From Promethearchaeia archaeon (lineage in GTDB: Archaea > Asgardarchaeota > Lokiarchaeia > Sigyniarchaeales > SOKP01): DNA of 32,000 nt. The translations under genes were made by a program, and so were the position numbers. Below are positions 221-11,974 of the stretch, one piece after another. The first letter of the stretch is position 1. Each line of letters starts with the position of its first letter. The stretch lies in NCBI GenBank assembly GCA_046497275.1, contig JAWOFX010000064.1, forward strand, positions 1 through 32,000. Direction: 5' to 3'. The notes below the pieces were generated by a model. That model was given only the letters and a program-made list of their open reading frames with translations, was not told the origin of the DNA and did no database searches.

Positions 221-1633
221 TTAAAATTGGGATTCATCAATCTGAGGCATATCTGCATCATTTATGGATTTATTAATCCTCTCTTCTGATAATTCAAAGT
301 TTTCTAAATCACCGGTCATAAATTCTTTGTACGCCAGAAGGTCAAAATAGCCGTGACCACTGAAATTGAAAAGTATTGTTTTGTTTTCATTATTTTCTTT
401 TGCTTTAAGTGCTTGATCCATAGCTTCTTTAATAGCATGATTTGTTTCGGGTGCAGGTAAAATCCCCTCTGCTTTTGCAAATAACATTCCTGCTTCTATA
501 ACTTCAAGCTGATGATGCATAGTTACGTCAATTATTCCATTATTATATAAATTAGATACAATAGGAGCCATTCCATGATATCGTAATCCCCCAGCATGAA
601 TTGGACTAGGTATGAAATTATGACCGAGGGTGTGCATCTTTAGGATAGGTGCTTTCTTGGCAGAATCCCCGTAATCCCAAGTATATTTTCCTTTACATAC
701 ACTCGGACATGCCCGAGGTTCAACTCCAATAATCTGAATATCTGGACTATCACCACGAATTTTATCTCGTGCAAATGGAATCATTAATCCAGAGAAGTTT
801 GACCCTCCCCCCATACAACCTATGACGATATCGGGATATTCGATACCAGATTTTTTGAGTTGTATTTGTGCTTCCTGACCAATGATGGTCTGATGAAGAC
901 AAACAAAATTAACTACACTTCCCAAGGAATATCGGATTTTGTCACTCCTTAAACTATGTTCGACCGCCTCTGAAATAGCGATACCTAAGCTCCCAGGATG
1001 TTCTGGATCACTTTCATAATAACTTTTTCCAGATTCTGTAAATCTTGAAGGAGACGCATGAACTTCGGCATCATATGATCTCATTAGTATTTTTCGTCCA
1101 GGCTTTTGAATAAAACTTGCTCTTACCATATAAACCGTACATGTGATATTAAATAAGGAACATCCATATGAAAGACCAGATCCCCATTGCCCTGCTCCAG
1201 TCTCCGTCACCAGCTCATTTATTCCATCCGCTTTGGCGTAGTATGCTTGAGCGAGCGCGGTATTGGGTTTATGTGAACCCGTTGGAGAGACTGATTCATT
1301 CTTATAGAATATCTTTATTTCTTCTCCCTCAACACCCAATTCTTTTTCTAGTCCATACGCTCTATGAAGTGGAGTGGGTCTATGTGATCTTGCATAAATC
1401 TCTCTTAAATCTTTTGGGATCGGTATAGTGGGTTCTTGGGATACTTCTTGAATAACACATTCCTTCGGAAAGATGGCAGCTGCCATTTCAAAGGGTGCAG
1501 GCTTTCCATTCATCGGGTTTATTAAGGGTGTCATAGGTGTGGGTAAATCGGGTAAAATATTTATCCACTCTTTTGGCACTTCCTTTGGATCTAACAAAAT
1601 TCTTGCATTAAAATAATCTGTCACTTTAAACAC
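221..1633 (-). CDS. trpB2: TrpB2-type PLP-dependent tryptophan synthase beta chain (stand-alone)
   Basis: PLP-lysine motif SPTGSHKPN, TETGAGQWG, GGGSNF, HAGGLRYHG, PAPET, NFSGHG. The long N-terminus (W.NI.PDLP) is typical of TrpB2. No trpA is adjacent. GTG start. Confidence 0.95.
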   Translation of the reverse strand: MFKVTDYFNARILLDPKEVPKEWINILPDLPTPMTPLINPMNGKPAPFEMAAAIFPKECVIQEVSQEPTIPIPKDLREIYARSHRPTPLHRAYGLEKELGVEGEEIKIFYKNESVSPTGSHKPNTALAQAYYAKADGINELVTETGAGQWGSGLSYGCSLFNITCTVYMVRASFIQKPGRKILMRSYDAEVHASPSRFTESGKSYYESDPEHPGSLGIAISEAVEHSLRSDKIRYSLGSVVNFVCLHQTIIGQEAQIQLKKSGIEYPDIVIGCMGGGSNFSGLMIPFARDKIRGDSPDIQIIGVEPRACPSVCKGKYTWDYGDSAKKAPILKMHTLGHNFIPSPIHAGGLRYHGMAPIVSNLYNNGIIDVTMHHQLEVIEAGMLFAKAEGILPAPETNHAIKEAMDQALKAKENNENKTILFNFSGHGYFDLLAYKEFMTGDLENFELSEERINKSINDADMPQIDESQF

Positions 1634-1732
1634 GTTTTAATATTTTTTAAATTTTTATGTGTCTCATAATAAAATTGGAAATCAATAGTATTAATGCACA
1701 TAAATAAAGTTTTAATATCTTGAAAATGAATC

Positions 1733-1767
1733 AAAACAAAAGAAAAAAGACATTAATCGAAATAGTC
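1733..1767 (-). terminator. Weak hairpin plus long U-tract between the Trp-rich uORF and trpB2 (candidate attenuator terminator)
   Basis: mRNA GACUAUUUCGAUUAAUGUC (1767-1749; about 6 bp with one bulge) is followed immediately by UUUUUUCUUUUGUUUU (1748-1733). Confidence 0.55.
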
Positions 1768-1780
1768 CAATGCAAAGGCG

Positions 1781-1846
1781 TTATTGCCAACGCCAAGGCC
1801 ACTGCCAACACCAGAAATTATTTTTAACAGTTGCCATCTTATTCAT
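1781..1846 (-). CDS. Trp-rich leader peptide (uORF) MNKMATVKNNFWCWQWPWRWQ, candidate trp attenuation leader
   Basis: Manual translation: ATG at 1846, second in-frame ATG at 1837, five TGG codons among the last ten sense codons, TAA at 1781-1783. Same strand as and directly upstream of trpB2. Confidence 0.8.
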   Translation of the reverse strand: MNKMATVKNNFWCWQWPWRWQ

Positions 1847-1881
1847 TTTATAAGGACTATTTATTTTTAGTTGTTTTTCAG

Positions 1882-1890
1882 TATTTAAAA
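1882..1890 (-). promoter_or_regulatory. Candidate TATA box for the leader-trpB2 transcript
   Basis: Minus strand TTTTAAATA predicts a start site near 1860. AT-rich context makes this uncertain, and a second candidate TATAAAAA lies at 1899-1906. Confidence 0.35.
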
Positions 1891-1991
1891 AGTTATTGTT
1901 TTTATACGTACTTTTTCCCATTCCTATTTGCGTTAGAAAAAGACATATCTCTCTTATATAATTTTATAACAAGAAAGGATTACATAGATTG

Positions 1992-2359
1992 TTATTCTTC
2001 AAAGATCTTGACTAGATTTCTTGCTGCTACCCGCATCACTTTCACAGTCTTCATTAGCGTATCTATAATTGTTCCAGCGCATACAATTACTAATTTTCCG
2101 GCATTTGTGATAACGATATATCCATCTTCTGCCCTCAAAATTATTTCACTGAGATCTTCTTGAAATAATTGTTGGATAGTAGATCTTCCTGTCATCAGAA
2201 GAGCAGACGCTAATCCACAAAATTGATCTCCATCAACTTTATAATGGGGCAGAGCGGAGAATGCTATCTGGTACCCCTCTGAGGAGACTAATGCAATCGC
2301 TTCAATATCTGCATTAGAGGTTATGAATGTTATTTCTGGTGAAATCTTCTCTATATCAT
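1992..2359 (-). CDS. Roadblock/LC7 (MglB-like) domain protein; 5' end uncertain
   Basis: The frame is open from 2411 to 1992. Upstream of the annotated ATG (2195) it reads DIEKISPEITFITSNADIEAIALVSSEGYQIAFSALPHYKVDGDQFCGLASALL, the N-terminal half of a Roadblock fold (I..IALVS.EG), followed by LSEIILRAEDGYIVI. There is no in-frame ATG/GTG/TTG upstream of 2195. Confidence 0.8.
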
Positions 2360-2578
2360 CGTTAGTTATTCCTAGATCGCTCCCAAACTGAATCTTGAAA
2401 ACCTTATAATTTTAATTTTTATTATTTAGTTTTATATCTTTATAGATATAAAAAAAAGATTTTTAATTTATTCTTTTTGGATTATATTTTATTTTAGAAT
2501 CAATGCTAATCTTAATTACTAAAAAATAAATAATTAATTTATTATATAGATGAAAGAACAATCACGTATAGTTAAAAA

Positions 2579-10337: not shown

Positions 10338-11974
10338 TATTGATTAAAATAATTTATTATTTCATTAATTGTATTAAATGCACTTATAGGAATTTTATTT
10401 TTAGATCTTAAACTTTCGAAAATTTTTTTATAATAAGGATTTTCAAATTTTTCCTCTTCATGATATTGATTTGTAAAGTATTTTGGCGTCAAAAAGGCGA
10501 TTTTCTCATATTCTGTAGAAGAATTAATAATTAAACTAATAATTTCACTTGATGGTAAAAATTTTGTTTGATATTCTAACAGTTTTGAATTTATTGATTC
10601 ATATTGTCCCATAGGATAAGTTTGTGATAATTCAAGAGGAATCAGTCCAAAAAAATCAGAATAAAAAGCAATATGTATATCTTCTCTAGGGATTTTTTCA
10701 TTGTTTTTAATTTGATCAAGCCAGCAATTAATAGAAGGGGAGTTTATGCCTTTAAGATCCAGTTCTGGTATTATTAATAAAAATTTTACTCCTTTAGGAA
10801 TTCTATAACGGTTATTTAATCTCTGCTTATATCTAACTATTATAGGGCGATAATAACTTTGGAAAGAATTAAAAAATCGTCCGTGTTTTTTATAGATCTT
10901 TTCATAGATCTCCATGAACTCTAGATTTCTGATAATATTTTTTAAACTATTTGCCAAATTAGGATGAGCAAGGATTCTTTCCTCTATCAATTCCCATAAA
11001 TTACCATCTCTAATAGCTTGCCTAACTACTTTTAATTCTGAAATAGAAATATACAAATTATGTAATGCTAATAATTTAATCTTCTTTTTATTTTCCATTT
11101 GCCTAATTTCTTTAGGGGTATATTTAGAACAAATTGGACAATTACATGGAAACTCTTTTAATTCATCTAAATTTTTAGTTCCTGTTGTAAGGGTAAAATA
11201 TCGTTGTTCTTTAGCATATAAAATATATGCTGCTGAATCCATCAAATCACATCCGCACGCTACTGCTATTGAAAAGAATTGTGGTAAGCCTAAGCCGAAC
11301 ATATGAAGAGGTTTAGAAGGTGTGATATTTCTTTTGACTGTCAGTAAAATATTAATTATTTCTGGGAACCTATAATCTAAAAAGTACTTCACAAGCCCTC
11401 CAATTGCATAAATTTCGAAATCCAATTTATTCATTTCCCTGGAGCTTTTCATTAATAGATCAGAATATTTGCCTCCATGTATCGGACCCATCCAGCAACA
11501 TTCTTTTTCTCTTCTTAAAATATTTAATTTTGCCCTTTCAATACTTAATTCAATTTTCTCCTTTGCTTGGATATAATTATCGTTAGGTTGTACGGGAATA
11601 TCTAAAATTACCGGAAAATTTGAGCCGATATCTTCTTGAAATTTCTCAATTTCTAAAGGGGTAATATTTATGTCTTCTTTATTATACATATATTGTTGGA
11701 AAGCCCCGCTATCAGTAGCAATTAATCCATTGAAGTTCAAATATTCATTTAATCCTTGTTTTAGAACTTTCTGTCTTTCTTCTCTATTCTGATAAAGAAT
11801 ATATGCATTAGTAAAAATACAATTGAATCCTATATGTTGTATTTCTGCAGGTTTTAAAATATTATCATATGGATGTACAACGGGTATTAAATTTGGAGTA
11901 ATTAATTTCTTTTTTTTATACTCTAATTCCCCAATTCTTCCTAAAGCATCAGTATCAAATATTTCATATTTCAT
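10337..11974 (-). CDS. tgtA: Archaeosine tRNA-guanine(15) transglycosylase
   Basis: TP.L.PVV, TNAY, TDSGAFQ, AIGG, H.FG, D..DSA.Y and the Zn site C-x-C-x2-C...H. C-terminal LIPLELSQTYP motif. Confidence 0.93.
   Translation of the reverse strand: MKYEIFDTDALGRIGELEYKKKKLITPNLIPVVHPYDNILKPAEIQHIGFNCIFTNAYILYQNREERQKVLKQGLNEYLNFNGLIATDSGAFQQYMYNKEDINITPLEIEKFQEDIGSNFPVILDIPVQPNDNYIQAKEKIELSIERAKLNILRREKECCWMGPIHGGKYSDLLMKSSREMNKLDFEIYAIGGLVKYFLDYRFPEIINILLTVKRNITPSKPLHMFGLGLPQFFSIAVACGCDLMDSAAYILYAKEQRYFTLTTGTKNLDELKEFPCNCPICSKYTPKEIRQMENKKKIKLLALHNLYISISELKVVRQAIRDGNLWELIEERILAHPNLANSLKNIIRNLEFMEIYEKIYKKHGRFFNSFQSYYRPIIVRYKQRLNNRYRIPKGVKFLLIIPELDLKGINSPSINCWLDQIKNNEKIPREDIHIAFYSDFFGLIPLELSQTYPMGQYESINSKLLEYQTKFLPSSEIISLIINSSTEYEKIAFLTPKYFTNQYHEEEKFENPYYKKIFESLRSKNKIPISAFNTINEIINYFNQ

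Follow-up and report, generated by a model that had tools for sequence, protein, structure and literature searches.

A short open reading frame (ORF) with five alternating tryptophan (Trp) codons lies upstream of trpB2 in a 32,000-nucleotide (nt) stretch of DNA from a Promethearchaeia archaeon (contig JAWOFX010000064.1, positions 1 to 32,000; "the window" hereafter denotes this whole stretch). We show herein that the Trp content of this leader ORF is far beyond chance, that its start, stop, and Trp codons are constrained in related Asgard archaea, that it is embedded in an RNA fold with compensatory changes, and that similar ORFs precede a second set of Trp-synthesis genes. The leader is a real, conserved feature, very likely with a regulatory function, and its role as a Trp sensor is well supported by sequence comparison. 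The explanation that we favor, with somewhat more confidence than doubt, is that a cis-acting leader peptide senses charged tRNA-Trp and controls trpB2 by ribosome-mediated attenuation, through read-through of a T-tract. For the output step, we infer ribosome stalling, with termination at the T-tract as the controlled event.

Results

Leader ORF upstream of trpB2

The main elements of the locus are as follows (positions are those of the window).

221-1624, minus strand: trpB2, coding for a TrpB-like pyridoxal phosphate enzyme, the presumed regulated gene; likely start GTG 1624, longest ORF from GTG 1633.
1781-1846, minus strand: leader ORF; conserved start ATG 1837 (product MATVKNNFWCWQWPWRWQ), extra in-frame ATG 1846, stop TAA 1783-1781.
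1787-1813, minus strand: five alternating Trp codons, the putative sensing segment; the TGG-NNN-TGG periodicity is conserved, and the spacer codons vary.

The leader ORF is contained in a spacer of 358 nt between the end (1992) of a Roadblock/LC7-like gene and trpB2, all on the minus strand. It has two in-frame ATG codons, at 1846-1844 and 1837-1835, and it is the second, not the first, that is kept as the start in relatives. The product read from this codon has 18 codons, five of which are TGG (starting at 1813, 1807, 1801, 1795, and 1789), in the strict alternation W-C-W-Q-W-P-W-R-W-Q-stop. A preliminary description of this DNA, made from the sequence alone, had reported a minus-strand upstream ORF with five alternating TGG codons, located in a GC-rich island of AT-rich intergenic DNA about 150 nt before the GTG of trpB2. 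The sequence agrees on every count: the ORF runs from 1846 or 1837 to 1781, the GC content is 0.42-0.45 in 60-nt windows over 1741-1830 and 0.18-0.22 on either side, and the TAA of the leader is 147 nt from GTG 1633 or 156 nt from GTG 1624. The locus thus has the layout of the attenuator class, i.e., an ORF enriched in codons for the regulated amino acid, on the same strand as a biosynthetic gene and some 150 nt 5' of it.

It had also been argued that five Trp codons at this position are hard to put down to chance, and the background in the organism's own genome upholds that argument. Among 2767 upstream regions of 600 nt, only 1.6% contain, in any frame, at least three Trp codons (including W-x-W) within the last 13 codons of an ORF, and most of these are out-of-frame readings of genes; the corresponding background for two Trp codons is 6%. 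A run of five alternating Trp codons is unique to the trpB2 leader ORF in this genome.

The product of trpB2 matches the NCBIfam models NF009057 (637.7 bits) and TIGR01415 (586.8 bits), each above its cut-off, and orthologues were found in 57 of 61 relatives. Translation of trpB2 probably starts at the second GTG (1624), because the proteins of relatives begin with MVDYFNS and this codon gives MTDYFNA. In most relatives, a Shine-Dalgarno (SD)-like GGT is located about 10 nt 5' of the trpB2 start; it is not evident in the window. The source genome is a Lokiarchaeial (Promethearchaeia) metagenome-assembled genome of 3.85 Mb with 30% GC and an estimated completeness of 98.9%, and no TrpA, IGPS (trpC), or TrpE was found in it. 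TrpB2 is therefore the only Trp-forming enzyme of the genome. By analogy with known TrpB2 enzymes, it presumably works from indole, and in genomes that lack the pathway a stand-alone TrpB2 is probably an indole-salvage enzyme. Since trpB2 stands alone, without TrpA, IGPS, or TrpE, the organism probably relies on Trp or indole from outside.

Conservation of the leader in Asgard archaea

Regions upstream of trpB2 were taken from 115 other Asgard genomes. Of 53 loci within the family of the source genome, 38 have a mini-ORF with W-x-W-x-W ahead of trpB2 (23 of 35 in a first set and 15 of 18 in a second). Leaders of this family typically comprise 16-18 codons of the form M-(A/S)-x-(V/L)-x3-4-W-x-W-x-W-(x-W), for example MAPVKINSWRWQWAWRWQ, MATIKYFGWRWAWRWR, and MAALRIISWQWPWHWQ. 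At the order and class levels, 17 of 21 loci carry shorter versions, with W-x-W followed by one to three residues (TWPWH, PWAWRP, FWRWQWCWRWQ), and a leader was recognized at 13 of 40 loci in other Asgard families (FWAWRWLLWP, FSWHPWHSWRWQ, SWRWWHEK, YQWHWGPRGPV). No Trp leader was present in the euryarchaeal trpB2 upstream regions that were sampled (Methanoculleus, Methanospirillum, Methanoregula, ANME-2, and Thermoplasmatales). The preliminary description had called for a search of orthologous loci for Trp-rich upstream ORFs; they are there in most relatives, and at trp operons as well.

What is conserved is the reading frame rather than a peptide. The only constant positions are the TGG codons; the spacer residues include R, Q, P, A, H, C, S, V, L, and F, and both the length of the ORF and its number of Trp codons (2 to 6) vary. 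Of 35 family leaders, 33 have an in-frame ATG 6-10 codons ahead of the first Trp, and in 25 the distance is exactly 8 codons; another leader has a GTG at that distance. A stop codon follows the last Trp after 0-3 codons in 34 of the 35. Composition-based nulls gave about 10% per locus for a reachable in-frame ATG within 14 codons and 28% for a stop within two or fewer codons. The ORF and its enrichment in Trp codons are thus kept at orthologous loci under constraint on start and stop, as expected of an attenuator-class leader.

Several loci deviate from this form. At two of them (L016 and L019), the Trp codons are deleted, and the 3' arm of hairpin 1 (see below), a CAUUGGA block, and the T-tract remain; at a third (L025), the leader stop is mutated and one Trp codon is lost. 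These decayed leaders indicate that the element is being lost in some lineages. In another Asgard family (f12; L085, L086, L090, and L073), the leaders 5' of trpB2 end with W-x-W-G-P-R-G-P-V-stop, and the GPRGP codons fall within a hairpin that covaries, GGGUCC-GNRA-GG(G/A)CCC, and begins at the last Trp codon. Since GPRGP is encoded by this hairpin, its conservation as a peptide may be driven by the RNA.

Leaders of trp operons

A second gene context was found in genomes with a Trp pathway. A search of 61 genomes, those of the source organism and 60 relatives, found TrpA in 29, and about 12 kb upstream of trpA was taken from 20 of the genomes with TrpA. A similar Trp ORF lies 5' of the first gene of the trpD-to-trpA operon, or of trpA itself, in 12 of the 20, with endings such as TWFWVWCWHA, GWQWPWRWQ, TWFWAWRWRA, FWSWSWHY, and AWPWHKL. 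These operon leaders have a hairpin around the stop codon, followed in most cases by a T-tract. Several genomes whose trpB2 has no leader keep one on the trp operon: 8 of 11 leader-less trpB2 loci are in genomes with TrpA, and 18 of 23 leader-bearing loci are in genomes without it, a split to be read as a pattern and not as a statistic, given that the genomes are related. A Trp-rich mini-ORF attached to two different groups of genes for Trp synthesis is what identifies bacterial attenuators in sequence comparisons.

Other Asgard families differ in layout. The leaders of family f2 have a hairpin (about -28 kcal/mol) whose 5' arm includes the stop codon, and in most members a short T-run (4-5 T) comes next; the f2 operon leader whose fold gave this energy has no T-run. 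On this modeled fold, the terminator-like arrangement would be occluded by a stalled ribosome, which supports the principle. In families f7 and f8, the leader ORF ends 53-64 nt from the SD sequence and ATG of the trp gene, a spacing into which a separate promoter would hardly fit.

In several trp operons, an ORF of 80-93 amino acids (aa) was observed between the Trp leader with its box (see below) and trpD. As a possible regulator it was set aside, with no homologue in the source genome.

L120:6848-7090, L119:6947-7204, L131:6956-7207, and L128:4226-4507, operon strand: ORF carrying the motif GPEKSKTA[KR]FI (80-93 aa).

Fold of the leader RNA

The leader RNA (1862-1729; 134 nt) has a predicted energy of -30.9 kcal/mol (z = -2.1) and folds into three helices, P0, P2, and hairpin 1.

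1854-1862, minus strand: 5' strand of P0, AAAUAGUCC, at the predicted 5' terminus of the leader RNA; both the minimum-energy and the centroid fold pair it with 1768-1760.
1760-1768, minus strand: 3' strand of P0, GGACUAUUU, within the conserved block GCAUUGGA.
1797-1835, minus strand: helix P2; 1835-1824 (the start-codon G and codons 2-5) is paired with 1808-1797 (codons of Trp11-Pro14).
1777-1794, minus strand: hairpin 1, 18 nt; GGCGUUG (Trp15-Arg16-Trp17), a GCAA loop, and UAACGCC, with the stop codon in the 3' arm.
1731-1750, minus strand: T-tract (T6, T4, T4), a candidate archaeal intrinsic terminator, starting 10 nt past P0.

Among 32 relatives, 88% of the cells of hairpin 1 are paired, as compared with 28-56% when the partner columns are slid, and two of its pairs show compensatory changes (GGCGUUG/UAACGCC, GGUCUUG/UAAGACC, and GGCAUUG/UAAUGCC). 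Some lineages have a shifted register, UUGGC/GCCAA. Helix P2 is found in both the minimum-energy and centroid folds of the window's leader and is predicted in most relatives. Its nearly invariant 3' strand precludes a covariation score; P2 pairing probably explains the strong conservation of MATV and of the block UUGGCAGUGGCC. Both the 3' strand of P2 and the 5' arm of hairpin 1 are made up of the Trp region, i.e., the Trp codons lie in conserved helices that a stalled ribosome could disrupt.

P0 is a long-range helix between the 5' untranslated region and the segment just 5' of the T-tract, and it encloses the whole ORF. It covaries strongly, in that its strands vary among genera and are still complementary (UGUCCUAU/AUAGGACA, GAUUUGGUUUA/UAAACCAAAUC, AUAUGAUUU/AAAUCAUAU, UAUCCUAU/AUAGGAUA, and AUGGUUUAAU/AUUAAACCAU). 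Cognate strands pair with a mean of -9.06 kcal/mol versus -6.35 +/- 0.38 for permuted partners, and none of 20000 permutations reached the observed value. In most genera, the 5' strand directly adjoins the AUG and includes an SD-like GGU; the window's genus has this strand 13-15 nt 5' of the AUG, at the predicted 5' end of the RNA. A run of at least five T occurs 15-60 nt past the stop codon in 27 of 35 family leaders, as opposed to 28% of random intergenic positions, and the median gap between the end of the P0 3' strand and a run of at least four T is 9.5 nt.

The preliminary description had placed a hairpin and then a U-tract after the ORF. The tract is at 1750-1731; the hairpin (1794-1777) does not come after the ORF, as it encloses the last Trp codon and the stop, and the stem that precedes the tract turned out to be the long-range helix around the entire ORF instead of an adjoining local one.

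These results come from folding each sequence separately, from a count by columns for hairpin 1, and from the comparison of cognate with permuted partners for P0. RNAalifold, applied to the full alignment from promoter to gene, returned almost no structure, because the helices are out of register in the MAFFT alignment. A pairing of the CAUUGGA block with UCCAAU of the proximal box (see below) was considered and rejected, as variants of one were uncompensated in the other.

Promoter elements and searches for other regulators

Promoter-like sequences occur both upstream and downstream of the leader.

1882-1900, minus strand: leader promoter; an A-rich stretch resembling a TFB-recognition element (BRE) and the consensus archaeal TATA box TTTTTAAATA (1891-1882), conserved in alignment A1.
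1657-1711, minus strand: proximal block; TATA-like AACTTTATTTA (1711-1701), GTGCATTAAT (1699-1690), the near-palindrome ATTGATTTCCAAT (1686-1674), and ATGAGACACAT (1667-1657).
Within the proximal block, minus strand: the box ATTGAnnTCCAAT, a candidate protein-binding site.

A block, AACTTTTTAWAT, 45-55 nt 5' of the ATG, is conserved more strongly than anything else 5' of the ORF (A1; invariant T40-42 and A45), and the leader promoter resembles elements 5' of the tRNA genes of the same genome. The usual archaeal distance from TATA box to start site would put the start of leader transcription near 1860, at the P0 5' strand. As for the proximal block, its sequence suggests a candidate second promoter, which may carry the operator of a Trp-regulon factor, and in many relatives it is followed by a CACAU...AUGUG hairpin or palindrome. 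The core of the proximal box has 105 matches genome-wide versus about 48 expected, and the search yielded no informative regulon.

TGTACA, the TrpY-type operator, is absent from the intergenic region that holds the leader, and its only copy in the window is at 11874. A cmscan search of 1500-2100 against Rfam, at E values up to 10, returned only a spurious rRNA match and no match to Trp_leader (RF00513), and no tRNA or other RNA gene was found in the region. When the organism's genome was scanned for leader ORFs enriched in amino acids besides Trp (His, Cys, Met, and others), no convincing candidate emerged, with an intergenic mask so crude that it hid the Trp leader too.

Two further observations concern other genes. 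For the Roadblock/LC7-like gene upstream of the leader (1992-2414, minus strand), the canonical start ATG 2195 gives only 67 aa, and the frame is open farther upstream. Elsewhere in the source genome (contig C164:901-1021, plus strand), there is a Cys/Gly-rich ORF of 39 codons with repeated CKCGGGC units, which may code for a small metal-binding protein.

Discussion

Proposed mechanism

The preliminary description had read the locus as leader-peptide attenuation, and on the comparative side this reading has stood up: Trp ORFs are conserved at trp genes, they are constrained in the way of translated frames, and the fold covaries. In the mechanism that we favor, transcription from the TATA box at 1891-1882 would produce a leader RNA of about 130 nt, with the 18-codon ORF inside a fold of three helices, and a ribosome would load on the leader while the polymerase moves ahead. 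When Trp-tRNA is ample, the ribosome would pass the five Trp codons, terminate, and leave; P2, hairpin 1, and P0 could then close, and the polymerase would stop at the T-tract after P0. When Trp-tRNA is scarce, the ribosome would dwell on the five Trp codons and, since P2 and hairpin 1 both draw on these codons for a strand, would keep both helices melted. To form, P0 would in that case need to span at least about 85 nt of looped, ribosome-bound RNA and would fail to do so in time, so that the polymerase would read through into trpB2. More TrpB2 would, in turn, yield more Trp from indole.

A wider proposal can be put forward tentatively, with rather less confidence. Asgard archaea may use true ribosome-mediated transcription attenuation across the phylum, with a long-range-stem terminator flanking the Trp ORF and a Trp regulon made up of trpB2 and trpD-to-trpA, and this may be layered on protein control at the palindromic box. 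A ribosome stalled anywhere in the ORF would, in such a design, hold the stem open, and the oligo-T would be passed.

Several points weigh against attenuation of trpB2 as set out above. Archaeal RNA polymerase terminates at oligo-T without a hairpin, so that a stem-dependent decision is not assured. A ribosome at the first Trp codon would, on the modeled fold, cover neither strand of P0 directly, which makes the block to P0 a steric or cooperative argument. Constrained folds revealed no clear classical 2:3-type or conserved antiterminator helix, and P0 is weak or absent in a minority of the family (L024, L027-L029, L102, and L103). The leader has been lost in several lineages and is therefore dispensable there. 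Finally, the proximal block, which lies between the T-tract and trpB2, is conserved in A1, including the position of its TATA-like element (1708-1701); it persists in leader-less relatives and is also found 5' of the trp operon in two genomes (L120 and L130). Because the TATA-like element and the near-palindrome persist where the leader is lost, trpB2 may be driven mainly from a regulated promoter of its own, a case that the preliminary description had named as counting against attenuation. If that promoter is regulated by a protein, the leader may be a second layer of control, by analogy with the repressor and attenuator of E. coli, or may act by another route.

Alternative explanations

The last point leads to the most serious alternative, in which the sensor is the same and the output differs. 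Here the leader would be a short transcription unit of its own, from promoter to T-tract, next to an independently regulated trpB2 promoter, and would act through RNA stability, translation, read-through polymerases that occupy the downstream promoter or operator, or a short RNA or peptide acting in trans. Trans-acting products of a trp leader are known from Sinorhizobium, namely the RNA rnTrpL and the peptide peTrpL (PMC7298713, PMC7968998). Besides the occurrence of the proximal block in leader-less relatives and before trp operons, this alternative can draw on the TATA-like element at 1711-1701, which resembles the leader promoter, on the near-palindrome, which would overlap the predicted start site, as is typical of archaeal repressor sites, and on the length of the T-tract (T6, T4, T4), which could terminate transcription efficiently. 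Against this, the short distance from the end of the Trp ORF to the SD sequence and ATG in f7 and f8 (53-64 nt) favors action in cis on one transcript, the leader is always on the same strand and directly 5' of a trp gene in two gene contexts, and P0 lies directly before the T-tract, as would be expected of a conditional terminator. We consider this alternative rather unlikely, though it deserves to be kept in view.

Two other explanations are, in our view, very improbable. In one, the UGG repeats, with their period of 6 nt, would bind a Trp-activated RNA-binding protein, much as (G/U)AG repeats bind TRAP in Bacillus, and the reading frame would be incidental. The regular spacing of the triplets fits this idea, as does UGGC, the commonest repeat unit in the family; however, the operon leaders keep the Trp codons without the UGGC unit (UGG-UUU-UGG-GUU). 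Nor does the number of repeats agree, as there are just 3-6 of them (five UGG with 3-nt spacers here), and TRAP sites have 9-11 (G/U)AG with spacers of 2-3 nt. Moreover, TRAP (MtrB, PF02081) was not found in the source genome by a search that detected the Bacillus subtilis protein as a control, and the repeats invariably share a reading frame with an ATG at constant spacing and with a stop 0-3 codons on, for which the nulls are about 10% and 28%.

In the other, the ORF would code for a functional Trp/Arg/Pro-rich micropeptide with a metabolic link to trpB2. Its conservation, with a promoter and T-tract of its own, would suit such a peptide, whose composition resembles that of indolicidin-type peptides, but no sequence is conserved beyond Trp and the first two residues, length and Trp number (2-6) vary, and part of the peptide conservation follows RNA helices (e.g., in another family, WGPRGPV from the GGGUCC-GNRA-GGGCCC hairpin). 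The ORF also lacks a signal peptide, and the linkage to two trp gene sets points to regulation.

Significance and comparison with known systems

Asgard archaea are the closest prokaryotic relatives of eukaryotes. If attenuation of trpB2 is confirmed, archaeal ribosomes serve as amino-acid sensors and RNA structure can modulate archaeal termination. For physiology, it would mean that in genomes that lack the pathway, the stand-alone TrpB2 is a regulated source of Trp. The leader also offers a test system in which the start codon, the five TGG codons, the three helices, and the T-tract can each be mutated.

Control of trp genes by Trp in archaea is known from TrpY of Methanothermobacter, a Trp-responsive DNA-binding repressor. 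The box at 1686-1674 could be the operator of an analogous factor. TrpY nonetheless differs from the present system in being a DNA-binding repressor and not a translated leader, and its TGTACA boxes do not occur in the intergenic region around the leader.

Leader-peptide attenuation, on the other hand, is a textbook bacterial mechanism that needs coupled transcription and translation. The Asgard leader resembles the trpL attenuator of E. coli (RF00513) in having a short ORF rich in Trp codons directly 5' of trp genes on the same strand, in a hairpin whose 5' arm holds Trp codons, with the stop codon at it or close by (compare the 1:2 hairpin), and in a stem followed by a U-rich tract, with the same predicted logic of stalling and read-through. 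It differs in its host, with an archaeal RNA polymerase and a TATA promoter, and in the lack of a match to the Rfam model. Moreover, trpL has two tandem Trp codons and a local 3:4 hairpin at its T-tract, whereas the Asgard leader has five alternating Trp codons and a long-range helix around the whole ORF; no 2:3 antiterminator was found in it, and a promoter-like block lies between leader and gene.

Close parallels in gene context are leaders of trpB2 in Bacteroidota (L216 and L167, MNCFTNTSTWIWRWRWQSFRTLL; L158; L174). Those of Bacteroides (L216 and L167) share the alternating W-x-W-x-W-x-W with R and Q spacers, and the other two have runs of consecutive Trp; endings such as TWIWRWRWQ and NGNWWWWH were observed. 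The Bacteroidota leaders have a strong local GC-rich terminator hairpin followed at once by a T-run, in contrast to the small stop-codon hairpin, long-range helix, and separate T-tract of the archaeal ones. A further comparison is provided by the leaderless poly-Cys short ORFs of mycobacteria, which are described as amino-acid-responsive attenuators of downstream operon genes (bioRxiv 10.1101/834739). They are likewise short ORFs enriched in cognate codons that do not require the classical four-segment design, and they differ in being bacterial and leaderless and in sensing Cys. The literature reached by full-text search contained no leader-peptide attenuator from archaea. The trpB2 leader is a new, archaeal version of the leader-peptide attenuator idea, with read-through as its presumed output.

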